A stretch of DNA of 64,000 nucleotides, taken from Alphaproteobacteria bacterium. Its GTDB lineage: Bacteria; Pseudomonadota; Alphaproteobacteria; Rs-D84. The stretch covers positions 9,197 through 73,196 of the forward strand of contig JAGCOR010000019.1 in assembly GCA_017642585.1 (NCBI GenBank). Reading direction: 5' to 3'. This document shows, one piece after another, positions 14,163 to 44,838 of the stretch. A program made the translations under genes and the position numbers. The notes below the pieces were generated by a model. That model was not told the DNA's origin. It saw only the letters and a list, made by a program, of their open reading frames with translations, and searched no databases. Numbering within the stretch: the stretch's first letter is position 1; each line of letters begins with the position of its first letter.

Positions 14163-14262
14163 AAACTGCCCCGGTGGGACATTTTTTATTGTGGCGGAGT
14201 TCTAATAAATGACGGTATTAGATATGATAATTACAGGGAATATCAGGGATTTTGTTGACGTT
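14163..14262. repeat. junction module D: terminator hairpin + TGGCGGAGTT (14192-14201) + ACAGGGAA/TCAGGGAT repeats
   Basis: 68 of 75 positions (14167-14241) are identical, ungapped, to 24627-24701. This includes a 35-nt perfect block. Confidence 0.85.
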
Positions 14263-14273
14263 ATTTTTCATAA

Positions 14274-14900
14274 TTATTTCTCTAATTTATCGACTTTAAA
14301 CCAGTTACTTTGTAAAAAATTCACAAAATTAGGAAAAGTTAAAACCTCGTCATGATATGAAGTTGAAATTAAAGCTACATCAATACCTAATTTTTTTGCT
14401 GGTTCAATATCAAGAATATAATTATCTCCTACAACGCATATATCCGGATTATATAAATTATATTTTTCTATAATATCTTTATAACAATCTCCCTTGTTTG
14501 TACAATTTGTTTCAGAAACAGCAAAAATATCAGTGACATTTGAAATTAAATTCAATGAAGATAAGACACGTATTATATGTTCTTTTGGAGAGAAAGAAAC
14601 AACAAAAAGATTTATGTTTTTACTTGTTAACAAATTATTAAGTGCAAGATCAGGGTGCAATGCACTATAATCAAGTTTGTTATGAACATTATTATAATAT
14701 GTTTGTTTATCTATACCAAAATAGTTTAACGCATCTAAAATATTAGGGTGTGCTAATTCAAATTGAGATAATTGACGAGAATCCATTCCTGTGGCATTAG
14801 ACAAAAACGCACTTGCCAAATTATCAATTTGGTTTGTTAACCCGATGTTTTTAGAATATAACGTTCCGTCTAAATCAGAAATAATGGTTGTTTTTTTCAT
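14274..14900 (-). CDS. HAD-superfamily hydrolase/phosphatase
   Basis: Motif I is ISDLDGTLY. VVSFSP and VVGDNYILD fit the later HAD motifs. Confidence 0.75.
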   Translation of the reverse strand: MKKTTIISDLDGTLYSKNIGLTNQIDNLASAFLSNATGMDSRQLSQFELAHPNILDALNYFGIDKQTYYNNVHNKLDYSALHPDLALNNLLTSKNINLFVVSFSPKEHIIRVLSSLNLISNVTDIFAVSETNCTNKGDCYKDIIEKYNLYNPDICVVGDNYILDIEPAKKLGIDVALISTSYHDEVLTFPNFVNFLQSNWFKVDKLEK

Positions 14901-14947
14901 GTTATTTATGATAATCTTATGACGAACAAAAATAAAGTTAAAAATTT

Positions 14948-16228
14948 ATGCGATTACCAAAAATAAATGAAATTATAGCTCCTGACATCAAAACAGCTAT
15001 TGATGTTGCTTTCGATAATTATGATAAATTTGCATTTTTTCATAATATAGAGCTTAAAGATGTAAAAAAAAGATTCAGAATTTTTAATTACAAAGGAAAA
15101 GTTTATGTTGTAAAACAAGCAAATAAAGCAAAAGCAAGAAAAGAAATATCAAATGGTCGTTGTATAGCTAAAAAAATAAATGGTTTAGTTGTATCTGATA
15201 TAATGTTGCATGTTGTAGAATCTGAACTAATTGAAACAAAAAATGGCTGTTTTTTGATTTCTGAATATAAAGGCAATACTCTGCATGAATATATTTACAA
15301 CAATAAAAAAATACCGTTATCTAAAGAGAGTTTTATAAAAATTTTTGAACAAATTTTACAGAAAGGCATAATTCTCCCAGGATTTTTACCAAGAAATCTT
15401 ATTTTGAATAAAGATGGATTGTTTCTATTAGATTTAGAAAACGTTTTTTATACCAAAGCAGTAAAATTTTTATCAGAATATATCTCTTTTGCAGAATTTA
15501 TAAATAATTGGTCGTGTTTATATGCCAGAGAAGATTTGTTGAATTTTGTTTCTAAATATCAGAAAAACATTAAGAAAAATAATCAAATCGGATCTTTTGA
15601 AAAAGAATACGCATTGCTAACTGGATGCGACGAAAATAAAAGCGGATTAAAAAATGAGATAGAAAATATAATTATGGTAGCAGAATCCGGTAACAGAATT
15701 TCTACTAATGAACATATGATAGCTAGTGATTTAGGGCATCTTGTTTCTGATACATTCCCGCGGTGCATAGATGTTATTCATGATTTATTACTGTATAAAA
15801 TACAGAAAGAAAAAAGCGAATTGCACAAATATTTAATTTTGATGACAACTTATTATAAATTCTATATGGAAGCTTTAGGTAAAGAATTTGTTTCTCAAAA
15901 AGGGTATTTATTGTTGCCTATGTTTTTAGTCATAGACAAAAAAATGGGGGTAATAAATGAAAAAGACCTTAATACAGTGAAAAATGCGTTAGAGCTCACT
16001 ATGAAAATAGCAAAAAAATTGCCTAAAAACAGTTTGTCTTATAGCTATTTGTTTAAAAATAAAAGTTTGCGCGAACAACTCTCCGATGCAATATATAAAA
16101 ATATCATAAATTTGTTGCCTATTTCTAAAATCAGAAAAAGTCGGGCAAACCTAACACAAGTGGTTGATTGTGTTCAAGAGATTTCTGAAAAGTTAACTTT
16201 TTTTGACCAAGTCTTTTATTTTCAATAG
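14948..16228 (+). CDS. protein-kinase-like fold protein with an atypical catalytic loop, plus a helical C-terminal domain
   Basis: VYVVKQ resembles the VAIK lysine. LPRNLILNKDGLFLLDLENVF aligns to a kinase catalytic loop plus a DFG-like DLE, but the usual Asp is replaced by Arg. Confidence 0.45.
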   Translation: MRLPKINEIIAPDIKTAIDVAFDNYDKFAFFHNIELKDVKKRFRIFNYKGKVYVVKQANKAKARKEISNGRCIAKKINGLVVSDIMLHVVESELIETKNGCFLISEYKGNTLHEYIYNNKKIPLSKESFIKIFEQILQKGIILPGFLPRNLILNKDGLFLLDLENVFYTKAVKFLSEYISFAEFINNWSCLYAREDLLNFVSKYQKNIKKNNQIGSFEKEYALLTGCDENKSGLKNEIENIIMVAESGNRISTNEHMIASDLGHLVSDTFPRCIDVIHDLLLYKIQKEKSELHKYLILMTTYYKFYMEALGKEFVSQKGYLLLPMFLVIDKKMGVINEKDLNTVKNALELTMKIAKKLPKNSLSYSYLFKNKSLREQLSDAIYKNIINLLPISKIRKSRANLTQVVDCVQEISEKLTFFDQVFYFQ

Positions 16229-18139
16229 CAATGATTGTTCATCAAATTGAAAATATTTTTTCAATTCATCAAAAGTTCCACTACAACCGTGTAAAAAACC
16301 GTGAGAAACTATCATGCAAGGTTTGTTATCATTTGGATATTTAAAAAAAGTGGATGATATGCATGCTGGTAAAAAATCGGGGTGACCGTTGTAAATACAT
16401 AAACATGGTTTATCTTTTGTAAATTGTTTTACAAAATCTTGATCAAGCATATTCGGTGCTGTAATATTTATAATTTTTGCTTCGATTTTATGTTCTCTTA
16501 GTATTGGTAATACATTGTACGCGAAAGTTGAGGTTATACCACTTGTCACTAATATAATATCTGGCTCTATAACTTTTTTGTGCCCGATTTCATACCACGG
16601 ATTTATTTTATTAGGAACAAAACCAATTTTTGGTAAATGGTCAGAATTTACACTGTGACACCTTATATAAAACAAAGAATCATTATTCACAAAAGCATAA
16701 TTCATACATGAAAAAAAATCTTCCGCATCAGATGGTTCTAAAAACGTTGAGTTATTTAACCAATTAAAAGAAAATGATTGAGAAACAGATTGGTGGGTAG
16801 AACCATTCCTGGAATTTGCTATTCCACTTTTATCTGCGGTTATAATCATATGACTTTTCCCTTGAGAAGCAGCATGTACTTGATCTAATGCTCTAAAAGA
16901 AAAGGCCTCTGTTGCGTTTATGTGTATACGTGCTTCAGGATCTGTTACAGAAATGCCGTGTGCCATAGCATACATATGCTGTTCACGCAAACCCACATCA
17001 TAATAATTCTTAATATCCTGCAAATTACATTCTATGATTGAATCTTTTTGCATCAAATCGGCTGTCAAGAAATAGAAATTATTAACATGGTTGTCTTTAA
17101 TATATTTTGATAAAAGTCTATAATAATATGTGGTAGCTTCGTGTTGCCCGACATTTTTATAGGAATCTAACGAAAGGTTTACATATTTTGGAGATCTGAC
17201 CACAGTTTTTGCAACATAGCATTTGTGAGTGTTTTTTTTGATAATTTTTAATAAAGAATCTCTGGTCACATTGCTGGATTGTAAAATAGTTTCTTTGTCA
17301 TAAATCATTTTGCGGACAATATCATGAGGGCAATTACTTATGGTGTGGTAACCACAAAAATTTTCTTTTTCCCCATGTAATCCATTGCCTTTTATAGTAT
17401 GTGCGATGATAAGTGTCGGTTTTTTCTTATAGGTGCACGCAACTTGATATGCTTTTTTTATTTCATTGATATCATGCCCATTTATTTCAATAACATTCCA
17501 ACCATATCCGCGCCAAATCATAGCAATATCAGAATGCGAGTTAAAATCGGAAACAGGTCTAGATAATTGTTTGCCATTCTTATCAAGTATACAAATTAGA
17601 TTGCTTAAATTTTGATTAGCTGCATATCTGGCAGCTTCACTAACATTGCCTTCTTGTTCTTCACCATCACCCAAGAAAACCCACGTTTTGAAGGTGTGTT
17701 TCCGTTGTTTTGATACAATCGCACTGCCTATGCCATAAGATAAAACCATTCCTAAAGACCCAGAAGGTGTAATGTCAATTCCTGGAATTTCAAACATGCA
17801 TTCGTGTCCTTGAAGTCTAGAATTTATAAAACGATATGTTAATAATTCTTCAGGTTTTACCCAATTAAGTAACGAAAATAAAGAATAGCGCAAAGGCCCA
17901 AGGTGACCTCGTAATAACACACGATCTCTATCAGGATGTCTTGGATTTTTTAAGGAAAATTTTAAAAAACCACCAAAATATAGGGTGGTCATAAGTTGTA
18001 ATGAAGATAAAGAGGCACCAAGATGACCTGATTTTGAATTTAGACAAACTTTTGCAATGTTAAGAGCTAAATATTCGCAAATATGATTTATATCAGAATT
18101 ATTTTTATTCACGACATTTATAAAATTTAAAGTATTCAT
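16193..18139 (-). CDS. transketolase-family thiamine-diphosphate enzyme (fused N and C parts)
   Basis: SGHLGASLSS and RDRVLLRGHLGP match the TK N-terminal motifs. GDGEEQEGNVSEAARYA...ILDKNG is the ThDP-binding motif. Start set at MNTLNF (GGGAG RBS). Confidence 0.8.
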   Translation of the reverse strand: MNTLNFINVVNKNNSDINHICEYLALNIAKVCLNSKSGHLGASLSSLQLMTTLYFGGFLKFSLKNPRHPDRDRVLLRGHLGPLRYSLFSLLNWVKPEELLTYRFINSRLQGHECMFEIPGIDITPSGSLGMVLSYGIGSAIVSKQRKHTFKTWVFLGDGEEQEGNVSEAARYAANQNLSNLICILDKNGKQLSRPVSDFNSHSDIAMIWRGYGWNVIEINGHDINEIKKAYQVACTYKKKPTLIIAHTIKGNGLHGEKENFCGYHTISNCPHDIVRKMIYDKETILQSSNVTRDSLLKIIKKNTHKCYVAKTVVRSPKYVNLSLDSYKNVGQHEATTYYYRLLSKYIKDNHVNNFYFLTADLMQKDSIIECNLQDIKNYYDVGLREQHMYAMAHGISVTDPEARIHINATEAFSFRALDQVHAASQGKSHMIITADKSGIANSRNGSTHQSVSQSFSFNWLNNSTFLEPSDAEDFFSCMNYAFVNNDSLFYIRCHSVNSDHLPKIGFVPNKINPWYEIGHKKVIEPDIILVTSGITSTFAYNVLPILREHKIEAKIINITAPNMLDQDFVKQFTKDKPCLCIYNGHPDFLPACISSTFFKYPNDNKPCMIVSHGFLHGCSGTFDELKKYFQFDEQSLLLKIKDLVKKS

Positions 18140-18280
18140 AAAATGCTCCCTTATTACAACCAAAGCGATGATACACGATATGAATATTATTTGCAAGTAG
18201 CAGTTGATTTTTAGGTTTTTTGCCGCTACCATAACTTCGTGTTGAACCAACTATTTCGCATAAATATGAGGTAGTAAATC

Positions 18281-19942
18281 ATGAAAAAATATTTTTTTGA
18301 TCCAATTTCACCAAATTTTGATGTTTTTGTAGATTATATAACTAAATTAAATGATAAAGTGGAACAATACATAAAAACAAATATGGCTCGTGTCCCCAGT
18401 TCTATAACTGAGAAGTATTCGGATTTATTAGAAGATGAAAATTTATCAGAAAAAGGTGAAGATTTAGATGCGGTGTTTTCCAGATTGGCATATTATTCAC
18501 AGGGTTTAATAAGATGGAATCATCCAGGAGCATTAATCAATGTGAATCCTCCTGCTTCAATTCCTTCAACCGTGGCATCCAGTTATTTTTCTTTGTATAC
18601 TCCTAATGGTGCCCAGGATATGTCAACTGGTTATTTATTAACTACAGAGCTGGCAGTTGTTAAAATGTTGAGTCAGTTGGCAGGTATTGATTATAAACAA
18701 TCTGGTGGATATTTTACTTTTGGTGGCAAGTCAACTAATATACATGCAATAAAACATGGATTACAAAGAATTTCAAAAGATTATGCAACTAATGGTTTGT
18801 CTGGTAATATAATCACATTTTCTTCTACTCAGGGGCACCCATGCCACGCAGAGGCTTGTAATTGGTTAGGTATAGGAGATAAAAATTGTGTTCGTATATC
18901 TACTAATAAAATGGGTGAAATAAATCTTGAAGAACTTGAACAAGCCATGTCATTCGCCATAGAACATGGTAAAAAGATTGCTTGTATAACTGTAAATGGT
19001 GGTACAACCATCCAAATGACCATAGATCCAATAAAAAAAGTTGTAGATATCAGAGACAGATTAGTAAAAAAGTACAATTTGGAATATATTCCACGTATTC
19101 ATGTTGATTCTGTTATTGGTTGGGTATGGTTGTTTTTCAAAGATTATGATTTTAATACAAACCCACTTAATTTTTCAAACAATGCTTTACAAAAACTTAA
19201 ACGACAAATGTTACGTATCAGTGAAATAAAATATGCTGATTCTTTTGGTGTTGATTTTCATAAAACTGGTTTTGCACCTTATTTATCATCGGTGTATATT
19301 ACAAAAGATAAAACAGAAATTTTTGAACAAAATCATTACAAAGGCATCTCATACGATGAATTGGAATATGGAAATTATTCGCCGTTTCAATATACATTGG
19401 AATTATCAAGACCGCTTAATGGTCCGCTTGCAGCATATGTAAATTTAAAAACTTTCGGTATAACAGGATTTCAAAAAATTATAGGTAATTTGATGGATAC
19501 ATCTGAATATCTGAAAGAATTACTAAATAATACAGGTAGATTTGAAGTCATAAATGATAATGATAGTGACGGATTTGTCACATTGTTTGTTGCTAAAGAA
19601 ACCAAAGATTCACCGTCTTTCTTTGAACTGAATAATTTGTCAGCTGCGGAAATCGAACAATTTGGTCAGTACAGTTACAAATTTTACCTGTTTTTGTTGG
19701 AGAAACAGAAAAAAGGTGAATGCTGGTTCGCTATAGATTATTCTACTGGGTACCATAGATTGTCCGATGGTAAAAAACTTGGTGTATTAAAGGCATATCC
19801 AATGACACCATATTTTGATAAAAAGGCAGCTGAAAAATTAGTCAAGGATGTTATGATTTTCCAACAAGAGTTTGATAAAGTTAAAGATACTTTTGTAGTA
19901 AAAGAGGTTCCACATAAACCAAGACCATTTGTTTACAGATAA
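18281..19942 (+). CDS. group II pyridoxal-phosphate-dependent decarboxylase
   Basis: SFGVDFHKTGFAPY contains the PLP lysine context (D.HK). Overall length and layout fit group II decarboxylases. Confidence 0.7.
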   Translation: MKKYFFDPISPNFDVFVDYITKLNDKVEQYIKTNMARVPSSITEKYSDLLEDENLSEKGEDLDAVFSRLAYYSQGLIRWNHPGALINVNPPASIPSTVASSYFSLYTPNGAQDMSTGYLLTTELAVVKMLSQLAGIDYKQSGGYFTFGGKSTNIHAIKHGLQRISKDYATNGLSGNIITFSSTQGHPCHAEACNWLGIGDKNCVRISTNKMGEINLEELEQAMSFAIEHGKKIACITVNGGTTIQMTIDPIKKVVDIRDRLVKKYNLEYIPRIHVDSVIGWVWLFFKDYDFNTNPLNFSNNALQKLKRQMLRISEIKYADSFGVDFHKTGFAPYLSSVYITKDKTEIFEQNHYKGISYDELEYGNYSPFQYTLELSRPLNGPLAAYVNLKTFGITGFQKIIGNLMDTSEYLKELLNNTGRFEVINDNDSDGFVTLFVAKETKDSPSFFELNNLSAAEIEQFGQYSYKFYLFLLEKQKKGECWFAIDYSTGYHRLSDGKKLGVLKAYPMTPYFDKKAAEKLVKDVMIFQQEFDKVKDTFVVKEVPHKPRPFVYR

Positions 19943-19955
19943 AAAGGACGTTAAA

Positions 19956-21869
19956 ATGAAGTCAGGATATTATGTTTCCGCATTTGTGTGTTGTAATGAA
20001 TTACAAAATGTATTAGATATAAAATTACGGCACGATCAAACCATCGCACTATGGTATTTTGATGGTGATAAAAATGTTAAATTGGTCAGATATTGGGAAT
20101 TAGAACGTATCTCTGGGTATAAACAACATCCAAAAGCTTTTTTTGATACAAAGGCCTTTTTTGAATTGTTGCAAACTTTATTGCACCAAGAAAATTTATC
20201 TTTGGATGATATAAATGATATTTGGGGTACCAAGGAAATAGAAAAAAGTACAGAATATAGAGATTTTTTTGCTAACACAAATATCGCATTCCACAGTATC
20301 GCTCATATGATGTCTTGTATGTATTACGGTAATTCACAGCCATTTAGCACTGATATGGTTTTGCTGAGTTTGGATGCTGGGCCAGATAGCCAGTTTGAAG
20401 AAAATGCATATGATAAAAATTTCTATGCCGGTGGTGTTATTAAAAACGGCAAATTAGATATATTCCCCATAGAGTCCCCTGCGAGATTTTGGAGTTATTC
20501 TTTCAAAAAATTCAAGTTACGTGAAGGTACTTTGATGGCTCTTGCTACAGCGGTAGATACTGAAATAGATTTTGATATTTCAAAATTTGATGATATATCT
20601 TTCTTTGATGATAGTACAAGAATCAAAGCACGAAAAATTGTGGACGAAATAGCTGATTTTGTATTCAGTTCTAAATTGCCTGAAAATGCAGATAAACGTT
20701 TTTCAGAAGAAGAACATAAAATCAGTGCTGTTATGAAAAATATAGTTAATTTATCGCAACGCATAGTAGAAAGGAATATTGACAATATTATTAAAAAATA
20801 TAATTTGGCACCCGATAAAACGATTATTGCTATGGCTGGTGGTTTCGCATTAAATTGTCCAACAAACTCATATTTGTTACAAAAATATAAATTCAAAGAT
20901 TATCAGATTCCTCCATGTACAAGCGATACTGGAATTGCGGTTGGTACTGGTATAGCTGGTTTCTATAATGGCATGAAAGACAAACCTGTAATAGAATTCG
21001 ATTCCGCATATTATGGTCAGCCCACAGGATTTGATGAACAAGTGCTTGAAAAATATAAAAATTATATAGATTCTGTCGATGATGTAACATTACAAAATGT
21101 TGTCCAAGATATTATTGACGAAGCTGTTATAGTATGGGTCAATGGTAATTCTGAAATAGGTCCGCGTGCATTGGGGAATAGATCATTGATTGGTGATCCT
21201 CGTTATATACAAACCAAAGACATTTTAAATACCATTAAAAAGCGTCAATGGTGGCGTCCAGTCGCTCCCGTTGTATTGGATGAATATGGAACAGAATGGT
21301 TTGACGATTATTTTTATTCACCTAATATGTTGCTTAATTTTGTCGTTAAATCGCAGTACAGAGATAAAGTACCTGCAATATTGCATTTTGATAATACTGC
21401 ACGTGTTCAAAGTGTTTCCAGTGATAGTAATTCTATGCTACATGAATTATTGATGGCTTTTTATAAAGAAACAGGTGTACCAATATTGTGTAATACATCA
21501 CTGAATGATGCTGGAGAACCAATAATAAATACTTTAGACCAAGCAATTGCGTTTGCTTTACACAAAGGTATCAAATATGTATATTGTAATGGAAAAAAAC
21601 GTATACAATTAAAAACAGATACCGATGTATATGGCAAGGCTTTTGATTACCGTGATGAATACTTTTTTGCGCCAAAGAATAATGTTGATATAGAAAGTAT
21701 TGTAAAAAAACAAAATCCGTTTAATTTATCTATCAAAGAATTAACATACTTTTTTGACAATCCAAATTTATTCTCGAAATGCGATATAACAAAGAAAGAA
21801 GATGCACAATTTGTAAAAGAACAAACTGCACAATATCTAAAGAATAATCCAGATGCATTGCAAAGATAA
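19956..21869 (+). CDS. carbamoyltransferase (NodU/CmcH family)
   Basis: GPRALGNRSLIGDPR, WWRPVAPVVL, DNTARVQSV and LCNTSLN match C-terminal carbamoyltransferase motifs. Start set at MKSGYY (AAGGA RBS). Confidence 0.8.
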   Translation: MKSGYYVSAFVCCNELQNVLDIKLRHDQTIALWYFDGDKNVKLVRYWELERISGYKQHPKAFFDTKAFFELLQTLLHQENLSLDDINDIWGTKEIEKSTEYRDFFANTNIAFHSIAHMMSCMYYGNSQPFSTDMVLLSLDAGPDSQFEENAYDKNFYAGGVIKNGKLDIFPIESPARFWSYSFKKFKLREGTLMALATAVDTEIDFDISKFDDISFFDDSTRIKARKIVDEIADFVFSSKLPENADKRFSEEEHKISAVMKNIVNLSQRIVERNIDNIIKKYNLAPDKTIIAMAGGFALNCPTNSYLLQKYKFKDYQIPPCTSDTGIAVGTGIAGFYNGMKDKPVIEFDSAYYGQPTGFDEQVLEKYKNYIDSVDDVTLQNVVQDIIDEAVIVWVNGNSEIGPRALGNRSLIGDPRYIQTKDILNTIKKRQWWRPVAPVVLDEYGTEWFDDYFYSPNMLLNFVVKSQYRDKVPAILHFDNTARVQSVSSDSNSMLHELLMAFYKETGVPILCNTSLNDAGEPIINTLDQAIAFALHKGIKYVYCNGKKRIQLKTDTDVYGKAFDYRDEYFFAPKNNVDIESIVKKQNPFNLSIKELTYFFDNPNLFSKCDITKKEDAQFVKEQTAQYLKNNPDALQR

Positions 21870-22905
21870 TATCGATTTTCCAAGGATAAATACGGACAAG
21901 TTGTCCCATTTTGCAGGGCAATTCGGGAAGCTGCCAAACTACTATCAATGCGTTATTTTTTATTTGACCATCAAAAACCATTTAATTGGTGCCAAAAATT
22001 ATGCTGATTATGATAAATATTATGCTTTATGTAGACAATTGTACCCACTATTAAATGACAAACAGAGTTTTTTTAATGTGATAGAATCTTTTGTTGGCAA
22101 ATGCGCAACAATGTATGTTGGTAATGACTATATGTCAATTTTTACACAGATTATTAACCCCCAAGATAAATCAGATTTATTCATAAAAACACTTAAATTA
22201 AATACGATTTTATTCAACAATCATTTGTGTCCATTGGTATGTTATGCTTTCGGGAAATGGCAAATTGATTCAAATATAGCACCAACATTATTTTATAATA
22301 TATTGGAATTAACAGTAATGTCATTGTACAGGGTTGTGCCACATACTGCACCACAAGTAGAGGGGAATTTACTGAATGATACGGGTGGAATATTTGATAT
22401 CTATAAAACATATGATAATAAATTAGTCAGGAAAACCCCAAAAAGTTATGCTGCGTTTTCGTTTTTAGCCCAACAAGAGTTTGAATCTTATAAATTTTTT
22501 TCTCAAAATTCAGAATTACTTGAATATTTGCCAGATGTGTATACGCTTGACACACAAAATATGGTTTTATCGCATTCCTTTATAAAAGGGGATTCTGGGG
22601 ACTATATGTTAATGAATAACAAGCTTATAACAGATGTTCAAAAACGTGATTTAGCCAAATTTTATGATATTTACTTAAAAAATCCAGAAATGCGTTTTTT
22701 GGATATTCATCCTGGCAATTTTATATGGAATACTGAACAAAACAGGTGGTTGTTTATAGATATGGGATTGATACCATATATTGGTTCTGAATATTATAAA
22801 AAATCGTGTTTTAATGAATATTATCACGACGTATGGGAAACAAGATTATGGCAAATAGCACACATACCTATAAGATCATTCGATTATGGGGTGTTTCAAG
22901 TGTAA
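21853..22905 (+). CDS. APH/choline-kinase-like phosphotransferase with an unknown N-terminal domain
   Basis: LVRKTPK lysine. FLDIHPGNFIW (catalytic loop, as in DLHPGN) and LFIDMG (DFG equivalent). It overlaps the upstream gene by 17 nt. Confidence 0.6.
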   Translation: MHCKDNIDFPRINTDKLSHFAGQFGKLPNYYQCVIFYLTIKNHLIGAKNYADYDKYYALCRQLYPLLNDKQSFFNVIESFVGKCATMYVGNDYMSIFTQIINPQDKSDLFIKTLKLNTILFNNHLCPLVCYAFGKWQIDSNIAPTLFYNILELTVMSLYRVVPHTAPQVEGNLLNDTGGIFDIYKTYDNKLVRKTPKSYAAFSFLAQQEFESYKFFSQNSELLEYLPDVYTLDTQNMVLSHSFIKGDSGDYMLMNNKLITDVQKRDLAKFYDIYLKNPEMRFLDIHPGNFIWNTEQNRWLFIDMGLIPYIGSEYYKKSCFNEYYHDVWETRLWQIAHIPIRSFDYGVFQV

Positions 22906-22946
22906 TTGTCAAAAAACATAAAATGTCAATTTTTTTTGATAAAGAC

Positions 22947-37276: not shown

Positions 37277-38277
37277 AATCCGACCCCGTTCTTTATGTTA
37301 TCTATATAAAATCTTCTACGTATCACATTATATAAGACTAATTTAATCAAAGTTTCTTTTACTTCTGAATTCAAATCTGTACTATCTAGGTATGGCAAAT
37401 AATTTGTCCAAGATTGTTCTATGAACTTTTTACATTTATCGGCATTATTTGTGTTACATTTAAAATCATTATAGTCGTACAAAATACGTGTAAAAAACTC
37501 CATACGCTCACACATTGAATCTATTAATTGTGAGTATTGTCGTATTGTTTCTTCTTGTAAACCAAGATCCAAACCGTCCAAAAAATCCATGCCATTGGAT
37601 ACTTCTGTAACAAACACAATCATAGGCCATACAATATCTGTCTTTTTTAATTTTATTGTGGCGTTGGCTTTTGTTCCGTCACCAAATAAGCTGTTTTGCC
37701 AAACAGACATTAATTTCTTGCCCAAACCAGGACAATCCATTATCCCCAAATCACCAATAAAATCATCTATACACCGCTTTATTTCTTTGTAGCGTTCTTG
37801 CTCATCATCTGTTTCAAACGGCAGTACGTGAACCACAAATTTATCTGTATCTAATGGCACATCTATGTTATGCAGATAATCGGTAATTATTTTTTGCGCA
37901 CTTGGTGGAATATTGGCAAAAGATCTGCGGGCGTGACCGTAAAAAGCAGACCGAGAATCGTCATCTTTAAATGGGTTAGGAGAATTCGTGATAAATATAG
38001 CTTTTTTTACATTTGTTTTACTACAAGCTTCAGATAATGTTTTTAATGCTTTATTTAAATTGGCGCGTACATTGTTAAAATCGTAACTACTATGTTGTAC
38101 GGCTTTTGCTTGTGCTAATATGCATTCGTTGTTATTAAGAAATAATTCTATATCTTCATTGTCGCTTTCGATTTTGACGGCCTGCAACTCTTTCATGTTG
38201 TCCAGCATTAAAACAATAGCAGCATTGACCTGAAAATCAAACCCAAACATTACAGCATTTGCACGTCTATTTGTCAT
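37273..38277 (-). CDS. lmuA: Cap4-type (DUF4297) dsDNA nuclease-domain protein, LmuA-like effector
   Basis: N-terminal FGFDFQVNAAIVLML, then EDIELF...ILAQAKA (D...QxK), as recalled for the Cap4 nuclease domain. Confidence 0.5.
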   Translation of the reverse strand: MTNRRANAVMFGFDFQVNAAIVLMLDNMKELQAVKIESDNEDIELFLNNNECILAQAKAVQHSSYDFNNVRANLNKALKTLSEACSKTNVKKAIFITNSPNPFKDDDSRSAFYGHARRSFANIPPSAQKIITDYLHNIDVPLDTDKFVVHVLPFETDDEQERYKEIKRCIDDFIGDLGIMDCPGLGKKLMSVWQNSLFGDGTKANATIKLKKTDIVWPMIVFVTEVSNGMDFLDGLDLGLQEETIRQYSQLIDSMCERMEFFTRILYDYNDFKCNTNNADKCKKFIEQSWTNYLPYLDSTDLNSEVKETLIKLVLYNVIRRRFYIDNIKNGVGL

Positions 38278-38415
38278 GTTATTCCCATGTTATTTGCTTA
38301 TATTTACAGTTGAATCTAGCAAATTTTAATATTTTTGCAACCTTTTACATAAAACTGGCATCGGGAAATTGGTCAAAGTATATAATTACGGTGAGCTTGG
38401 GCGGATTGGTGGTAA

Positions 38416-38711
38416 CTGGTGATATACACTAGTAACATCGTGGGTGAAAACCGCCGGAAACGGGGTGAAAAAGAACATCCCATGGAATTACCACGGGATG
38501 TTCAATATTACTGGCGGACTAGAATTCTGTTGCTAACTTTCCCATACCTAAATACGCAAATACAGGGAATTTACAGGGAATTTTACCATTTTTATCCTTG
38601 GTTTTTTGATGCTTTGACGACCGCAAACATAGGTATTCTGCGGTTTTTGCCGCTACCAGTCCGCAAAAAGCACAAAACTTAACAGGGAATTTTATTAGTC
38701 ATAACAGGGAA
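38416..38711. repeat. junction module C: island-end-like 96 nt + TGGCGGA (38512-38518) + four ACAGGGAA copies
   Basis: It is homologous to module B on the left (80 of 103) and to modules D and E on the right. ACAGGGAA occurs at 38562, 38573, 38682 and 38704. Confidence 0.8.
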
Positions 38712-38718
38712 ATATATA

Positions 38719-39720
38719 TCACAAATCAGGATTCAATTTGTATTTACGTCCCTTAGTACGACCTGTCGCAATAAGCACCTTGTTTGCAACCAATGCCGCC
38801 AACAATTTCTTAGTCATTTCTGGCGATTTGTTGGTCAACAACTGAGCGCGATAGTTATCTATTTCACCATTGGTTTGTATAAATCCGATAATATTTATTA
38901 AGAAATCCCGTTGTGTTTTGGTCAATAATTCGGTAATTTTTTCGGGAATTATTTCGGTAATGTTTGACAATTCATTTATGGCTCGCAATATCGCAGACAA
39001 TATAAATTCTATGAATTCTGTTGAATCTGCAGTCTTTTCGGCACGGCCCAAAACAGCATAATATTCGGCCTGATTTTCATAAACTATGGTTTCAACCGGG
39101 ATCCATGCAAAAACCGGTTGCCATGTGGATAATATCAACGTTTGCCACAAACGTCCCATACGACCATTGCCATCTGCAAATGGGTGGATAAATTCAATCT
39201 CAAAATGCATAACTGCGGATTTAATCAACGGGTGTTCTTTAGTCGTTTTTGCCCATTTGAATAAATCGGTCATCAAAGATAACAAATATTCTGGCTTTGC
39301 ACCGATGTGAACCACTTTTTTACCAGAAAACACACCAACATTACCACTGCGGAATTTACCAGCTTCTTCAACCAATTCGGCAGTCATCATTTTGTGTGCA
39401 TGCAGGAAGTCAGAAACTTTATAAGGGTTTAGTGCCAAAGCTTGTTCATATGCATCATAGGCATTACGAACTTCCTTGATTTCACGCGGATTACCAACAA
39501 TACGACGGCCGTTAATTACATCGGTAATTTGTTCCAACGATAAAGAATTTCCTTCAATAGCAGTGGATGATTGAATGGAACGCAGGCGATTTACTTTGCG
39601 TAAATGCAGATTGCGTTCATATTCTTTTTTACCCTGAATTTGCCCGATTTTTTCAGATATTTCCGCAACTAGATTAGTAATATTCGTCGTGATAGTAAAC
39701 TTTGGTGCATTTGTTGCCAT
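38719..39720 (-). CDS. Fic family protein (class II, intramolecular inhibitory motif) with a C-terminal winged-helix-like region
   Basis: HPFADGNGRMGR is the canonical Fic motif. An upstream STAIEGN fits the (S/T)xxxE(G/N) inhibitory helix. Start set at MATNAPK (39720). Confidence 0.88.
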   Translation of the reverse strand: MATNAPKFTITTNITNLVAEISEKIGQIQGKKEYERNLHLRKVNRLRSIQSSTAIEGNSLSLEQITDVINGRRIVGNPREIKEVRNAYDAYEQALALNPYKVSDFLHAHKMMTAELVEEAGKFRSGNVGVFSGKKVVHIGAKPEYLLSLMTDLFKWAKTTKEHPLIKSAVMHFEIEFIHPFADGNGRMGRLWQTLILSTWQPVFAWIPVETIVYENQAEYYAVLGRAEKTADSTEFIEFILSAILRAINELSNITEIIPEKITELLTKTQRDFLINIIGFIQTNGEIDNYRAQLLTNKSPEMTKKLLAALVANKVLIATGRTKGRKYKLNPDL

Positions 39721-39731
39721 ATCAAACCTTT

Positions 39732-39766
39732 TATTCGGTAATATTATACAAAATAAATACCGAATA
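39732..39766. promoter_or_regulatory. 9-bp inverted repeat immediately upstream of fic
   Basis: TATTCGGTA (39732-39740) and TACCGAATA (39758-39766) are separated by 17 nt. The repeat begins 12 nt from the fic start codon. Confidence 0.35.
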
Positions 39767-39878
39767 TGCAAGTTGAAAAGATTGATGTGCAGATGTTGTT
39801 TTTTTGTGCCAATCTCTTGAATTTTGATGTTTTTACACTAGATAATTAGTATGACAAAATTCATACAAGGATGATCGC

Positions 39879-40574
39879 GTGGCAATCGATATTGTAAAAT
39901 CATATTCAGAAAATATTAAGGGCTGCAAAGTTTGTTTTGTACATGCCAAGTTGTCAAACATCAATGAAATAGCAATAAAAGTTCACGATGATATTATGGA
40001 TACATCATGGTTGTCGAAATTGAAACCCTTGCCAAAAATAGCATATGAACAACGTGCTAAGGATACAATAAAAAGTATTGTTGAAAATATCTTAAATAAA
40101 GTTACAAATAGTGTTACTGAAGACCTTGGAGAACTTATAGTATCTACACAAGGACAGTCTTTATTAGAACAAAAACATGACCACAGAAAATTGCCACTTG
40201 CTGAATTATGGAAAGAAAAAGATCGTGGTAATCCTGGGTTCGATTTTCATACAGAAAGCCCAACCAATTATATCACTTTTGGAGAAGCAAAATATAATAG
40301 TAATCAAACGGCATATGGTAAGGCATTAACACAAATAAACAACTTTATTGATAAAGGGAAGGATAAAAAAGAAATGTCTGATCTGGAACATTTCACTACA
40401 GAAAAAGCACAAGCAAATTTTCTTTTGCCAACAGGAAAAGCTTTTGCTGCGGCTTTCTCTGTTCATTCAGACGCCCCAGATACCATATTCAAGAATATAA
40501 AAAAATGTGATAAATTTAAAGAATTATTAAAGTACCCCGAATTATATTTAATAGGAATCCAAATTGTTAATTAA
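39879..40574 (+). CDS. hamA: HamA-like (DUF1837-type) protein with a D...ExK motif
   Basis: GTG start with AAGGA 8 nt upstream. GFDFHTE...FGEAKYNS fits D...ExK. It is translationally coupled to the downstream helicase (11-nt overlap). Confidence 0.5.
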   Translation: MAIDIVKSYSENIKGCKVCFVHAKLSNINEIAIKVHDDIMDTSWLSKLKPLPKIAYEQRAKDTIKSIVENILNKVTNSVTEDLGELIVSTQGQSLLEQKHDHRKLPLAELWKEKDRGNPGFDFHTESPTNYITFGEAKYNSNQTAYGKALTQINNFIDKGKDKKEMSDLEHFTTEKAQANFLLPTGKAFAAAFSVHSDAPDTIFKNIKKCDKFKELLKYPELYLIGIQIVN

Positions 40575-42912
40575 AGATATATTAAAAAATATTGCTACCG
40601 AAGAAGATGTACGGCAACTGGTTTCGGATGCCATATTTGACATACATAAAAATGGAGCTATTGATCCACACCTATTGGAAGAATTAACATACGTAAAAAA
40701 ATTCTATCCAGTATTATTTGCAGAATACGAAAATGAATTGTTGTATACGTTAGGCTTGTTTTATAAAACAAAAGAGCCAAAATCTTTTTTTGAAACATGT
40801 TACAAGATTTACTCCGATTCAATATATGAAGAAAAAAAAGAAATGTTCACCCCCATACAAGCAGATATAGACAGTCACATTAAAGAGCATAAATATTTTT
40901 CTTTTTCTGCCCCAACTAGTATCGGCAAATCATATTTATTCAGATATTTAATACAAACATCCATTAATGATATTGTTGTTATTGTTCCGTCTCGAGCACT
41001 GATAGCAGAATATCTGATTGAAATTACAAAATTGGTGGATAAAAGTGTATTAGTATTGCAGTTTGTGGATAATATAAATAAAACAAATACGAAAAGACGT
41101 GTATTCGTGGTTACCCCCGAACGAGCCAGAGAAATATTTAAATACAAAGGCACGTTCAAAATAGATTTGTTTTTGTTTGATGAGGCACAGATAACCGAAG
41201 AATATACACGCGGGATGTTGTTTGATACATTGGTACGCCGCATAAACAACAATTTCCCTGAAGCAAAAAAAGTTTTTGCCCACCCTTTTATAGAAAACCC
41301 AGATGCGCAATTTATAAAAAATAATATTGTGGATGATACGGATCAGTCTGTATATAAGCAGCAAGCCGTTGGAAAAATATATTTAGCCACAAAAGATGAG
41401 AAGTTTATATATTTTTCCCCGTTTGAAAAGAGATGTAAGGTAGAAAGCGACGAAGATATTGTATTAGAAAATTTAAAGAAATTTAATAAAACATTATTAA
41501 TATACACTTCAAAAACCAGCATATATAATGACAGTTTCAGAACAAAATTTAAAAAATATATTGAAGTTTGTCCGCGTATTACAAATCCCGATGCTTTGAA
41601 TATTATACACCAGATTGAAGATTATGTTGGAGCAACAAAAGATACACCGTCTCTTATGGTGAACATGATGAAACGCGGAATTGTCATACATCATGGTTCC
41701 ATCCCGTTGTATGGTAGGATGTTAATAGAAAACTTTATAAAGGGCGGCTACGCAAGAATTTGTTTTGCAACGTCTACACTTATTCAAGGAATAAATATGC
41801 CTTTTGATATGGTTTGGATAGATAATTTTTCTTTTTCTGGTACAGATTCGGATAAAAATGTGGCATTAAAAAATTTGATTGGTAGGGCTGGTAGAACATC
41901 TGACACAAAAGAATTTGATTACGGATACGTCATAATTCCGAAATGTAATATTCGTACCTTTGTGTCCAGAATCACTCAAACGGCCTCCTTAGGAACTACA
42001 TCTTTGTTAGATGAAAACATTCAAAATATACCTGAAGATGATAGAGATATGGTTGAAGCAATTAAAAATGACACATTTAACGATGAGTATTTGTTGCCAG
42101 AAACACAATTGGAACGTATAGAACGAGCAGACATTACTGAATATATACATTGTATTTTAGACACGCTTTTTGTTGGCGAACAACCATTAACATACAGACA
42201 ATATAATGAATTAACAACCGGACAGAAAAGAAAATTAAAATTAGCATTTGAAAAAGTTTATACGGCACATCTCCGACGAGACATTTTATCTGTTGGCGAA
42301 AAAAGTGTTTTAAGCACCAGTATCTCCTTGTTGTTATGGATGATACAGGGACGCACTTTTAATGCAATTTTAGCCAACAGATACGCTTACATCACAAACA
42401 AAGACAAACAACGTGATATAGAAAAGAAATATCACGAAGGGTTAATAACAAAAGAACAAATGAATGAGGAATTAGCTAACATAGAGTTACAGTTTTCTCA
42501 AGTGGCTAGCCTAATTCCAAACACCAAATTAAAAAGTGCGATTCCCTTGTTTACTGGTGATAACCGAACAAAAGCGCGTCTTAAAGATTTTAAATATGAC
42601 ATGCTTATTTTTGATACATATGATTACATAGATAAGGTAATATATTTTTGTATTTCAACTCCATTATCGGCTGTATTTTTGGCATATTACAAAAAAACGC
42701 AGGATAAAAGAGCTTGGTCTATGGTAAATTATATAAAATATGGTACAAATGACCTGTGCGAAATTTGGTTGGCACGATATGGATTTAGTTTTGAAAACAT
42801 AGATTGGATTAAACAACATGTTGCGCATATAGACGAGAATAAAATTGTATTTAAAAAATCAATCAATGAATTAGATGAAGACAAACGTAAAATCATTGAA
42901 CGATTTATCTGA
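40564..42912 (+). CDS. hamB: superfamily 2 DExx-box helicase, HamB-like
   Basis: APTSIGKSY (motif I), LFLFDEAQ (motif II), ATSTLIQGINMP and GRAGR (motif VI). TTG start with AGGA 7 nt upstream. Confidence 0.6.
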   Translation: MLIKDILKNIATEEDVRQLVSDAIFDIHKNGAIDPHLLEELTYVKKFYPVLFAEYENELLYTLGLFYKTKEPKSFFETCYKIYSDSIYEEKKEMFTPIQADIDSHIKEHKYFSFSAPTSIGKSYLFRYLIQTSINDIVVIVPSRALIAEYLIEITKLVDKSVLVLQFVDNINKTNTKRRVFVVTPERAREIFKYKGTFKIDLFLFDEAQITEEYTRGMLFDTLVRRINNNFPEAKKVFAHPFIENPDAQFIKNNIVDDTDQSVYKQQAVGKIYLATKDEKFIYFSPFEKRCKVESDEDIVLENLKKFNKTLLIYTSKTSIYNDSFRTKFKKYIEVCPRITNPDALNIIHQIEDYVGATKDTPSLMVNMMKRGIVIHHGSIPLYGRMLIENFIKGGYARICFATSTLIQGINMPFDMVWIDNFSFSGTDSDKNVALKNLIGRAGRTSDTKEFDYGYVIIPKCNIRTFVSRITQTASLGTTSLLDENIQNIPEDDRDMVEAIKNDTFNDEYLLPETQLERIERADITEYIHCILDTLFVGEQPLTYRQYNELTTGQKRKLKLAFEKVYTAHLRRDILSVGEKSVLSTSISLLLWMIQGRTFNAILANRYAYITNKDKQRDIEKKYHEGLITKEQMNEELANIELQFSQVASLIPNTKLKSAIPLFTGDNRTKARLKDFKYDMLIFDTYDYIDKVIYFCISTPLSAVFLAYYKKTQDKRAWSMVNYIKYGTNDLCEIWLARYGFSFENIDWIKQHVAHIDENKIVFKKSINELDEDKRKIIERFI

Positions 42913-42993
42913 TAACATTTCAGCAAATGCCATAAAAATCAAAAATACAGGGACTTTTGTATATACAGCTCTAAAAATTCCAAAAGCTTTTTT

Positions 42994-43015
42994 CAGGGGT
43001 ATTTCCCCTGTTTTT
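42994..43015 (+). terminator. rho-independent terminator after the helicase gene
   Basis: CAGGGG-tattt-CCCCTG followed by TTTTT. Confidence 0.6.
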
Positions 43016-43094
43016 CAATTTTTTTCATTTTTAGACAACGATTTTCCATTTTTCTGGTTTATATAACCCTGTCAAAAGGCAAAAACTTTGTTTT

Positions 43095-43433
43095 TTGATC
43101 GTTATTGTCCGAAAGGATGGTGGCGAAGTATCAATACATACAAAAGCAGAAAACGCACAGATACTTACCAAGGCGTTAGCATTCGGATGGAAATACAAAA
43201 AACAATACGAAGCCGGTGTTCCGGTTGATCAAATAAAGCGCGAAGAACATCGTGCCGATAGAACGGTGTACAAATACATGAACTTAGCATACTTGTCACC
43301 CAAAATAATATCCGACATACTGGAAGGCGAAGTGCCTACGCACGTGAACCTGCAAACCCTGTTCGGCATCGCACAAAAATATGCAGATTTTGATAAACAA
43401 GAAAAACTATTTTATAGAAATAATGTCGCATAA
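43095..43433 (+). pseudogene. C-terminal remnant of a large serine recombinase
   Basis: ALAFGWKYKKQYE...VYKYMNLAYLSPKIISDILEGEV...LFGIAQ aligns with the last ~75 aa of the recombinase at 34233-35822 (AFATAWKYRELYE...FYRYLDIAYMDPDKINQILSGKL...LFQIAQ). No catalytic domain lies upstream. Confidence 0.65.
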
Positions 43434-43481
43434 AACACTGTAACGTATTGAATTCTAGCAATTTATACTTATATATTGGGT

Positions 43482-44573
43482 ATGATAGAAAAAATTAACA
43501 CATATTGGCCAATTTATAAAAACCTTGAAAAAGAGGTTGTCGCTTTATCTTATAATATTATGTTTTCTGATGATCTGTTGAATACATATTCAGTGAAAAT
43601 AGCCGATTTGATATTCAGATGTTCCGCTGAATTAGAATCGCTATATAAAGATTTGTACAGGAACGAAACCAATAATGAACCGCAAGATGTCGGAACAGCT
43701 GTCAGATATCTTGATGAACATTGGCGTATTAGCCAAAAAGCTATATTTATAAGTTGTCCAAATTTCTATTTTTCAAAATTTAAACCGTTTAAACCTTTTG
43801 ATTATGTAAATGGAGATACGAACGATTTTTATAGTGCATATAATGCAATAAAGCATGATAGAGTTAAAAATATTGCCAAAGCCAATCTAAATATTTTGAT
43901 ACGAATAATGGGGGCTTTATTCGTACTGAACGTATATTATAAAAATCAGAAATTTAATATAAACCGTCCTCATGACATAACGAGTTTTGACCGTTCGTTT
44001 GGTTCCGAAATCTTTACAATAAAAATGTTTGATGGGGTAAACGCGGCATTTGCACTTAGGGGAACTAAAGATGATTTTATATCATCGGACGAATTACTCG
44101 AATATATATATTTAGGGGCCTATCAACAAAATACTTATAAAGGTATTATAACAAAATGCATTGAACTCTCAGAAGAAGAAAACCAGTTTATTATAAATTC
44201 CAAAGAATACAAAGAGTTTGTAGAAAACGGTATAGGTTTTCCTGCTGATTGTAATGACCCATTAAGCAGGTGCCAGTATATCGGTGGTAGTTTTTTTTAT
44301 AACAAGTTACAAAAAACAGGTGACATCAAAACAAACCTGCTCAATTCACCGGAATATAAATCATATTGTGTAAATAATAAAAATTACCCAGCAAACAGCA
44401 TAACTACCGAAAATTTGAAAAAAATTGTGTATGCAGTGGGTGGTTTTTATTACTTACGAGAAGTTTTTCAATTTAAAAATAAGGAAGTTCAAATTAAGTC
44501 GGGTTCTGGCATGGAACTTGTTTTGAACAAAGGCCAAGATTTATATCCTGATAGTTGGCGCAAAGTAGAATAA
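43482..44573 (+). CDS. hypothetical protein, 363 aa
   Basis: Intact ORF with the ATG at 43482 (a TTG at 43476 is also possible). No confident domain, and the only notable string is YNAIKHDR. Confidence 0.6.
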   Translation: MIEKINTYWPIYKNLEKEVVALSYNIMFSDDLLNTYSVKIADLIFRCSAELESLYKDLYRNETNNEPQDVGTAVRYLDEHWRISQKAIFISCPNFYFSKFKPFKPFDYVNGDTNDFYSAYNAIKHDRVKNIAKANLNILIRIMGALFVLNVYYKNQKFNINRPHDITSFDRSFGSEIFTIKMFDGVNAAFALRGTKDDFISSDELLEYIYLGAYQQNTYKGIITKCIELSEEENQFIINSKEYKEFVENGIGFPADCNDPLSRCQYIGGSFFYNKLQKTGDIKTNLLNSPEYKSYCVNNKNYPANSITTENLKKIVYAVGGFYYLREVFQFKNKEVQIKSGSGMELVLNKGQDLYPDSWRKVE

Positions 44574-44698
44574 TTTGTCTCGTTGGCGTTATTCCCACAT
44601 TATTGACTACGGAAAAACTGGCATTGTATAGAAAGCCGTATTTTGTCGTCTAAAAATGGGGATTTTTGGGGCTATACCAGAGTCAATGCATGAAAAAT

Positions 44699-44720
44699 CC
44701 CGCAGAACCGCGGGCTTTTT
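44699..44720 (+). terminator. hairpin plus T-run just before the tRNA-Ser 3' end
   Basis: CCCGC-agaacc-GCGGG followed by CTTTTT. Its position is analogous to the hairpins in junction modules B through E. Confidence 0.5.
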
Positions 44721-44748
44721 ATCTGTACCGGCATATATGCCAGAATAC

Positions 44749-44838
44749 TGGCGGATGGGGAGGGATTCGAACCCCCGGAAGCCTTGCGACTTCAGCGGTT
44801 TTCAAGACCGTCGCATTCGACCGCTCTGCCACCCATCC
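44749..44838 (-). tRNA. tRNA-Ser (anticodon UGA), 90 nt, CCA encoded
   Basis: The reverse complement folds by eye. Acceptor GGATGGG/CCCATCC, anticodon loop CTTGAAA (TGA), long variable arm, T-loop GGTTCGAATCC, and a 3' GCCA end. Confidence 0.9.

Follow-up and report, generated by a model that had tools for sequence, protein, structure and literature searches.

The 64-kb window analysed here (64,000 nt of contig JAGCOR010000019.1 from an alphaproteobacterium, assembly GCA_017642585.1) contains about 30 kb of accessory DNA between a lipoprotein gene and an intact tRNA-Ser(UGA) gene. This region is very probably a tRNA-Ser(UGA) integration hotspot, in which small elements of a large serine recombinase (LSR) family have inserted at TCCGCCA, the 3'-terminal heptamer of the tRNA, using two docking sites: the tRNA itself, which holds a stack of two islands, E2 and E3, and a secondary site with a third island, E1. 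An earlier note on this DNA had divided the ~30 kb into three segments at tRNA-derived heptamers, and against conspecific strains those breakpoints proved exact. Site-specific islands accreted in tandem beside a tRNA gene are a known kind of arrangement, of which this case is a new example, solid rather than surprising; its particular features are a 7-nt core that is the CCA end of all serine isoacceptors and a second docking site that is itself derived from a tRNA.

The tRNA-Ser(UGA) gene lies on the minus strand, where ARAGORN agrees with the earlier placement, and its 3' end reads TGGCGGATGGGGAGG on the plus strand. TGGCGGA is the reverse complement of this end, and in the core TCCGCCA the last three bases of the acceptor stem are followed by the discriminator G73 and an encoded CCA. 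Plus-strand copies at 14192, 24497, 24652, 38512 and 44749 (junctions J1 to J5) were borne out by a count across the window, which gave 15 copies on both strands versus 4.3 expected, a number reached in no shuffle. The five junction copies are intergenic; the other ten are coding and have no flanking similarity to the junctions. As had been described, a stem-loop precedes the heptamer at all five sites when the upstream 45 nt are folded, with energies of -16.4 kcal/mol at 24497 and -18.8 kcal/mol at 38512 (both at or below 0.1% of background), and of -9.1 and -10.3 kcal/mol at 14192 and 24652, a range into which the coding copies at 9867, 45039 and 52424 also fall. The stem 5' of 14192 was called as a terminator by a scan (14167-14181) and has a near-identical counterpart at 24652, and upstream of 44749 there are two small stems and a CCCGCAGAACCGCGGG stem (44699-44714).

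The junctions are assembled from a small set of recurring ends. Identity is 88% between 14156-14241 and 24616-24701 (termed here the F hairpin, core and A-type left end), 78% between 24402-24503 and 38417-38518 (B-type right end and core), and 81% between 24688-24724 and 38557-38593, ACAGGGAAT repeats included. Repeats of the ACAGGGAAT type follow three of the cores, as had been noted, namely those at 14192, 24652 and 38512, with four copies between 38562 and 38712. They are direct, with some inverted, and, at no more than ~250 nt from the left ends of A type or of E3, form clusters at 14233-14252, 24693-24712 and 38562-38712 of the window, at 11086-11240 of the related locus L014 and in L251.

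To establish what each junction borders, conspecific sequences L001, L088 and L091 were aligned to the window. Relatives by Lgt, which is encoded in the right chromosomal flank, are uncultured gut Alphaproteobacteria, many of them labelled Candidatus Enterousia, and the Lgt of L001 is 98% identical to that of the window; the order glyS-BI1-lgt-tRNA-Ser is kept in most of 80 related loci. Positions 1-10985 of L001 correspond to window 55695-44749, ending at the tRNA 3' end, and 10979-11067 (89 nt) correspond to 24658-24570 at 98.9%. As the L001 tRNA is joined directly to the 24658-24570 sequence, 24659-44748 is an insertion of 20.1 kb placed cleanly at the end of the tRNA. Homology restarts at 14163 (L001 13273-18758 = window 14163-8676), and the position of E1 is filled in L001 by 2.2 kb with trpS and a gene of 176 aa. 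In L088, a JGI contig with an identical lipoprotein, homology stops at 14198, restarts at 24494-24658 and jumps to 44749. Between its cores L088 carries three cassettes (an MjaI-type restriction-modification pair, trpS with a 179-aa gene, and an 87-aa gene), divided by TGGCGGA or TGGCGGG, with an internal junction that reads right end, TGGCGGG, left end. In L091, homology also stops at 14198 and passes straight into a trpS cassette. Because homology is lost exactly at the heptamers in L001, L088 and L091, E1, E2 and E3 are true insertions. The comparison of related strains for empty or alternative sites, which the earlier note had proposed, was therefore informative: L001 and L088 lack both E2 and E3, and other cassettes replace E1. 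The equivalent of the J3 heptamer in L001 and L088 is the 3' end of the intact tRNA-Ser. Tandem islands are recognised by an intact tRNA at one boundary, by direct repeats of the tRNA 3' end both between elements and at the far boundary, and by empty or otherwise filled sites in relatives with breakpoints at the repeat, and each of these features was found here.

In L251 an E2-type left end, 95.7% identical, adjoins chromosomal DNA of a different, unrelated sequence, suggesting recent horizontal spread; a metagenome scan with the 16-mer ACGGTATTAGATATGA otherwise returned mostly chance matches, L251 being the sole relevant one. On the lipoprotein side, the F hairpin of the window begins at the lipoprotein stop codon. 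L001 (reverse complement 6660-6800) has ~105 nt extra there, then a counterpart hairpin and a degenerate core, TGTAGCAGA; either the window has lost a short stretch here or the distal junction of L001 has decayed.

The secondary site occupied by E1 is the 3' end of a tRNA-Ser-derived unit. In many related species the usual layout comprises the tRNA, a terminator, a unit of 150-180 nt that ends in CCTC(A/C)CCATCCGCCA and a second terminator, with the unit carrying the terminal ~15-19 nt of the tRNA at its 3' end. The window copy is 93% identical to L088 over 24494-24658. Judged from sequence, the unit resembles a duplicate of tRNA-Ser with an insertion in the T-loop; one of its hairpins shows compensatory changes, and in L027 (12476-12989) the unit, there 171 nt long, stands three times in tandem, with two identical copies. 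Among 54 related species loci with enough sequence, about 18 have the terminator and unit, and the unit is present where the tRNA carries no island (L002, L003, L013, L021, L027, L030, L035, L053 and L072). Further homologues were seen in L036, L061 and L071. Element ends are fused to the unit's 3' end in the window (E1), L036, L061, L071, L088 and L310, and in L014 the unit site is empty and the tRNA site occupied.

These observations bear on the earlier interpretation, in which every island integrated in turn beside the intact tRNA, leaving a decaying attL scar at 24497 and reconstituted attP sites at all internal junctions. The match to the tRNA end at 24497, given correctly if conservatively as 17 nt, extends to 18 nt (24494-24511 = 44746-44763) before similarity decays, as such a scar would predict, and J4 is truly a hybrid of right end, core and left end. 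Even so, this history is improbable, since the sequence at 24497 that resembles the tRNA end is part of a conserved unit also found at island-free loci, the unit's 3' end matches each species' own tRNA variant (CCTCACC versus CCTCCCC), L088 has the unit with its tRNA site empty, and 148 nt of native chromosomal DNA separate 24497 from 24652. The tRNA-like end at 24497 is thus not an integration scar; it is a pre-existing second target at the unit's 3' end. What stands of the earlier interpretation is the stacking of E2 and E3 next to the intact tRNA, with E1 at the secondary site instead, and the attP-like nature of 38512, which is the sole right-end/core/left-end hybrid among the window junctions; 24497 is of attR type and 24652 of attL type. 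The two halves of J4 are found apart elsewhere, the B-type end directly on tRNA-Ser in at least 12 genomes and the E3-type left end on a chromosomal flank in L088 and L091. J1 and J3 have native terminators as their hairpins, and those at J2, J4 and J5 are brought by element right ends, which end up just downstream of the tRNA or the unit after integration.

The nature of the unit itself was examined against Rfam, where a search at gathering threshold (window and four loci) returned tRNAs only. Under permissive settings the L027 units matched RtT, the E. coli tyrT distal repeats (RF00391), over their full length at 18.7 bits against a gathering score of 45, too low for family membership, and the window's own unit had no match. 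The resemblance lies in 150-180-nt units that follow a tRNA, end in its terminal ~15-19 nt including CCA and are sometimes tandem, with GGAUGAGAAC...AGGUUCGA...AAUCC...CCA common to the RF00391 alignment, whereas the parent tRNA and the host class differ. To our knowledge, RtT has not been described as a recombination target. A tmRNA-like reading, prompted by GGTTCGAC and the tRNA-like 3' end, was rejected, as ARAGORN found no tmRNA in the window and by eye little remains of the T-arm but a loop of 3 nt.

E2 encodes an LSR of 546 aa with the resolvase catalytic and recombinase domains expected of a class that spans ~450-700 aa, and the motif YTRKST...Q with a candidate catalytic serine is present in its translation; similarity to CcrB and XisF (NCBIfam) is below threshold. 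In nine related loci (L009, L016, L047, L050, L051, L069, L071, L073 and L075), an LSR with a DUF2924 gene, or an LSR C-terminal fragment, lies 1.0-1.9 kb from a tRNA-Ser or unit core with its 3' end toward the core, and E3 retains a fragment in a like position. Pfam scans of the larger island open reading frames (ORFs) gave no tyrosine-recombinase domain. From this absence and the recurrence of LSRs at the ends, we infer that the E2 LSR, with its DUF2924 partner, catalyses integration. LSRs as a class recombine att sites of ~40-50 bp with imperfect dyad symmetry and cross over at a central dinucleotide. Here, identity at the junctions is limited to (T)CCGCCA, with a weak AGAAT...ATTCT dyad around the core by eye, and the core variants TGGCGGG and GCCGCCA suggest that crossover occurs inside CCGCCA, with the first base outside.

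The family of ends extends well beyond the window. Among the 54 loci, the tRNA-Ser 3' end is fused to an element-type end in 23, and in 12 of these the end is of B type. The B-type hairpin was sought in 185,579 species genomes and turned up at 93 loci, of which 41 have a core 10-12 nt away; all 41 belong to this alphaproteobacterial group and lie at tRNA-Ser(UGA), tRNA-Ser(GGA), tRNA-Ser(CGA) or hybrid junctions (L383, with the structure of J4, and L386, reading B, core, A). B-type ends on tRNA-Ser(GGA) or tRNA-Ser(CGA) were seen in L313, L318, L321, L323, L328, L342, L371, L385, L390 and L391. Given ends at several serine isoacceptor genes, the family appears to target the common 3' heptamer and not one gene. 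The remaining 52 loci lack a core and are dispersed palindromes, mostly in Rickettsia. The concern that hairpin and core might together be a genome-wide dispersed repeat can accordingly be set aside, as the combined unit is tied to tRNA-Ser genes and the bare stem alone is dispersed in Rickettsia. There, the B-type stem CATCCCGTGG...CCACGGGATG is also the stem of a palindrome, gtCATCCCGTGGcttgaCCACGGGATGac, with many copies per genome and no tRNA core (L305, L306, L309, L312, L314, L316, L332 and others), which also occurs in Enterousia metagenome-assembled genomes (L308, L373); the two may be of common origin.

Islands might instead have been swapped by homologous recombination through flanks or repeats, the LSR being a passenger or the gene of a nested element and no site-specific reaction taking place at TGGCGGA. 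Repeats of 86-102 nt do flank the segments, the tandem unit copies of L027 resemble the products of unequal crossing-over, and flanking homology could swap alleles between strains. We nonetheless regard such swapping as unlikely, since homology between alleles stops within 1-2 bases of the 7-nt core and not inside the longer repeats, the same ends occur at tRNA-Ser isoacceptor genes that share the 3' heptamer only, hybrid junctions join unrelated end types at the core, and the position and orientation of the LSR relative to the core are conserved. Least likely is integration by a recombinase encoded outside the islands, such as a tyrosine integrase with ACAGGGAAT arm sites, leaving the LSR some other role: the direct repeats cluster at left ends as arm-type sites do, and most cassettes have no recombinase at all, but the larger ORFs of the 30 kb have no tyrosine-recombinase domain in Pfam scans, the LSR with DUF2924 is the only recombinase recurrently linked to the ends elsewhere and many left ends lack the repeats (e.g., those of trpS cassettes), so that the arm-site picture suggested by ACAGGGAA repeats gives way to a putative LSR. 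Integrons are characterised by an IntI tyrosine recombinase, an attI site and attC hairpins with a GTTRRRY core; this reading was also rejected, as no tyrosine recombinase was found in the same Pfam scans and the GTTCTAA and GTTGTAA 3' of the core misfit GTTRRRY.

In the favoured reading, that of LSR-driven integration at TCCGCCA, an element-encoded LSR with its DUF2924 partner would recombine element and tRNA-Ser at the heptamer, and crossover within it would rebuild the 3' end, which would explain why the tRNA stays intact. The hairpin of the incoming right end would land 10-12 nt downstream of the tRNA, probably as a replacement terminator, and since each right end brings its own hairpin, every junction would acquire the appearance of hairpin, spacer and TGGCGGA. 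Two docking sites would be available, the tRNA itself and the 3' end of the tRNA-Ser-derived unit with the terminator that follows it. E1, at the secondary site, would behave as a cis-mobilizable element, flanked by att sites and without its own recombinase; E2, with an intact LSR, and E3, with an LSR remnant, would have stacked at the tRNA. E3 probably arrived last, as the attR of E2 would thereby have become the hybrid junction at 38512. If the elements are active at present, the predicted circle junctions are GGGATGTTCAATATTAC-TGGCGGA-GTTGTAAGAAAGAACGG for E2, ATATGCCAGAATAC-TGGCGGA-CTAGAATTCTGTTGC for E3, GATGTCTGATTTTAC-TGGCGGA-GTTCTAATAAATGACGG for E1 and CCAGAATAC-TGGCGGA-GTTGTAAG for E2 and E3 together, and the restored empty sites would read TTTTTTATTG-TGGCGGA-TGGGGAGGGATTCG and TTTTTTATTG-TGGCGGA-TGGGGAGGATTTG.

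Several points weigh against this reading. No circular intermediate or excision product was seen, though no search aimed at circular attP junctions was made; exact-protein look-ups for LSR, TyrS and Lgt gave essentially one clone from one study. Breaks in Logan contigs were considered as evidence of excision and rejected: those at 14172/14196 lie in a ~35-nt exact repeat common to J1 and J3, and those inside the tRNA probably reflect tRNA sequence common to other species. A defence pair separates the E2 LSR from the nearest core, 2.7 kb away, and E1 has no recombinase; the ACAGGGAAT left-end repeats are without an assigned role. A 2-bp crossover suffices for serine recombinases, and the 6-7 bp of identity exceed that need. 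The collection of loci was centred on lgt and tRNA-Ser, which biases the counts, and conservation of the unit could have causes other than docking. Concerning the distance, the 3' end of the LSR directly abuts a B-type end in L351, so the E2 PDC-M46 pair fills a cargo slot, and from these sequences the position between LSR and B-type end looks like a preferred cargo insertion point. Window 35831-38351 corresponds here to L351 5792-6125, and elsewhere the slot holds a variable gene of ~1 kb.

Table 1 Junctions, islands and flanking features of the tRNA-Ser(UGA) hotspot, in window coordinates
Feature	Position	Strand	Evidence or remarks
Lipoprotein gene, chromosomal left flank	13803-14162	+	Identical 111-aa product in strains that differ downstream; homology of L001, L088 and L091 spans the gene
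Bidirectional terminator hairpin F and T/A spacer, right half of attB2	14158-14191	.	Common to L088 and L091 up to 14198
J1 core TGGCGGA	14192-14198	+	attL-type: chromosomal terminator, core, E1 A-type left end; L088 and L091 homology stops at 14198
E1, recombinase-less island	14199-24496	.	Pfam, NCBIfam; trpS-containing cassettes instead in L001, L088 and L091
E1 A-type left end			ACAGGGAAT/TCAGGGATT at 14233-14252
E1 HAD phosphatase	14274-14900		
E1 426-aa ORF			Listed between HAD phosphatase and transketolase-like gene
E1 transketolase-like	16193-18250		
E1 PLP decarboxylase	18281-19942		
E1 NodU-type carbamoyltransferase	19929-21869		
E1 kinase-like	21853-22905		One of two kinase-like proteins encoded by E1
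E1 tyrS	23009-24292		Bona fide
E1 B-type right end	24402-24496		Hairpin 24457-24488
J2 core	24497-24503	+	attR-type: E1 B-type right end, core, unit 3' end; L088 homology restarts at 24494
Native tRNA-Ser-derived unit and terminator F'	24504-24651	-	Hairpin 24615-24651; chromosomal flank of primary site
J3 core	24652-24658	+	attL-type for the E2+E3 array: chromosomal flank F', core, E2 A-type left end
E2, island with intact recombination module	24659-38511	.	Pfam, PADLOC; missing from L001 and L088
E2 A-type left end	24659-24724		
E2 Dcm methylase	24748-25878		PADLOC MTase_II 4.1e-77
E2 MzaE/AIPR	25897-28014		PADLOC 2.2e-46
E2 MzaD/DUF4420	28017-28940		PADLOC 7.7e-11
E2 MzaC/Z1	28933-31704		PADLOC 2.3e-89
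E2 MzaB/HATPase	31701-33143		PADLOC 1.9e-62
E2 DUF2924 gene	33191-33688		Partner of LSR
E2 162-aa ORF			Listed between DUF2924 gene and LSR; no assigned family
E2 LSR, 546 aa	34182-35822	+	PF00239 1.3e-39; PF07508 7e-14
E2 PDC-M46B	35831-37276		
E2 PDC-M46A	37273-38277		
E2 B-type right end	38417-38511		Hairpin 38473-38503
J4 core	38512-38518	+	Hybrid, attP-like: E2 B-type right end, core, E3 left end
E3, decayed island	38519-44748	.	Pfam, PADLOC
E3 left end	38519-38593		ACAGGGAAT at 38562, 38573, 38682 and 38704
E3 Fic	38719-39771		
E3 231-aa ORF	39879-40574		
E3 HamB-type helicase	40564-42912		HamB models down to 3.8e-58
E3 LSR C-terminal fragment, 112 aa	43095-43433		36% identity to LSR C-terminus, E 3e-17
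E3 365-aa ORF	43476-44573		
E3 C-type right end	44602-44748		
J5	44749		E3 right end, core, tRNA-Ser(UGA)
tRNA-Ser(UGA), intact	44749-44838	-	ARAGORN; Rfam tRNA 53.8 bits; 3'-terminal 7 nt (44749-44755) = J5, primary docking site
lgt, chromosomal right flank	44912-45733	-	PF01790 4.4e-68

The cargo had essentially been named correctly and comprises a metabolic cluster with tyrS in E1, Dcm and Mza genes, a recombinase and a Lamassu-like pair in E2, and Fic with a Hachiman-type helicase in E3 (Table 1). E2 encodes the cytosine methylase and MzaB-E by which an Mza-type system is recognised, Pfam domains agreeing with PADLOC, and its PDC-M46 A/B pair has weak LmuB similarity. A Hachiman system pairs a HamB helicase with a HamA (DUF1837) partner; in E3, the 231-aa protein encoded upstream of the helicase had no match among the HamA, Pfam and NCBIfam models. 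The ends of E3 are homologous to trpS-cassette ends in L088 and many species. As had been suggested as a check, all three segments deviate in composition, with trinucleotide distances to the flanks of 0.17-0.22 (0.21 for E1) compared with maxima among flank chunks of 0.10 at 6 kb and 0.076 at 10 kb; the GC content of E1 is 0.316 and that of its gene cluster (14199-22905) 0.308. No replication genes were identified in Pfam scans of the islands. With no recombinase in E1 or the L088 cassettes and a fragment only in E3, all are flanked by att sites and appear, by this arrangement, to be cis-mobilizable.

The E1 tyrS is nearest to Firmicutes-type TyrRS; identity is 55-62% to Clostridium and Paenibacillus and, within related gut Alphaproteobacteria, 64-92%. 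The closest other species, L104 (18-1743), has a tyrS 92% identical that is still linked to the kinase-like gene upstream but lies elsewhere in the genome, with metK and not an element end following. In L083 and L086 (the same strain, sample ERZ28654002; = window 14274-18250), the transketolase-like gene is split into ORFs of 493 and 129 aa and the HAD gene was called at 222 aa, which suggests ongoing decay of the E1 cluster in some members of the population.

Comparable arrangements have been described in other hosts. Dehalococcoides ssrA islands lie in tandem at the 3' part of the tmRNA gene with a CcrB-like serine recombinase, DsiB, and many without an integration module are read as cis-mobilizable elements kept by accretion (PMC3146451). 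In common with the window, these islands follow a tRNA-like gene in tandem, are bounded by short direct repeats copied from the 3' part of that gene and have an LSR of ~540 aa near one end (PMC3146451). In contrast, the ssrA target is the tmRNA T-loop with a 20-bp repeat, compared with a tRNA-Ser CCA end and 6-7-bp core here; six genes, a second small serine recombinase among them, form the integration module there, compared with LSR and DUF2924 here; the phylum differs, and dehalogenase cargo stands against defence and metabolism; and no second tRNA-derived docking site is described (PMC3146451). Similarly, staphylococcal cassette chromosome (SCC) and pseudo-SCC arrays at rlmH (CcrAB/CcrC) use a serine recombinase of the same broad family and place cargo at a conserved gene's 3' end (PMC3146451), and form tandem composites that include cassettes without recombinase genes. 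CcrB is the best NCBIfam similarity of the E2 LSR, at 122 bits against a cut-off of 900, so the E2 LSR is not a Ccr orthologue, and the target (rlmH versus tRNA) and the accessory gene differ. Tycheposons of Prochlorococcus use mostly tyrosine recombinases, with an LSR minority, and carry replication modules (10.1101/2020.12.28.424599). They too are cargo elements at tRNA genes, including tRNA-Ser(UGA), that form tandem stacks, decay into remnants and give rise to variable islands, but they have a primase/helicase and ~40-nt partial tRNA repeats, whereas the islands here have no replication genes and a 7-nt repeat and do not belong to that group. Finally, Wolbachia phage WO also has an LSR adjoining a DUF2924 gene in an alphaproteobacterial mobile element (PMC11376236), though as a full prophage with structural genes, which the 6-14-kb islands lack.

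The trpS cassettes that occupy the E1 position in other strains recur widely in the group. Across ~33 related species, TrpS proteins of the L001 type show 80-95% identity. In at least 12 of them a CCGCCA core follows the end of trpS at a distance of exactly 43 nt (42 in L402), with a conserved ...GCAACAGAATTCTAG left end between, and in several species trpS starts ~317 nt past a core followed by GTATTCTGGCA..., the end types being those of window E3. The adjacent gene, which varies with the species, encodes tRNA-Ser(UGA), tRNA-Ser(CGA) or tRNA-Ser(GGA). Other species have trpS, with no cores around it, next to tRNA-Arg(ACG) or in the vicinity of tRNA-Tyr and tyrS. The cassette is ~1.4 kb and was seen at 9490-11450 of L088, 5733-6014 of L091 and in L398-L428. 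There is no trpS in the 64-kb window, where E1 carries tyrS instead, and a protein search with exact look-ups for the trpS of the window strain returned other strains and species only. A tentative extension is that tRNA-Ser 3' ends serve across the clade as an LSR-driven cassette platform, at which att-flanked cassettes of 0.5-2 kb, trpS included, would be shuffled in trans and the unit would act as a decoy landing pad.

The analysis provides a base-precise map, checked by comparison, of how anti-phage defence and metabolic genes are acquired and stacked in an uncultured gut alphaproteobacterium with a small genome, and it describes a family of serine recombinases that appears to target the seven 3'-terminal bases which tRNA-Ser genes have in common. 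Such a target is short, universal and defined, and if the activity is real the family would be a candidate source of tools. The RtT-like docking unit and the aminoacyl-tRNA synthetase genes in att-flanked cassettes offer leads for specialists in mobile elements and tRNA. Should the platform idea hold, the system would follow an integron-like logic with different chemistry, and the RtT-like unit would be a maintained pad that doubles docking capacity and spares the tRNA the risk.

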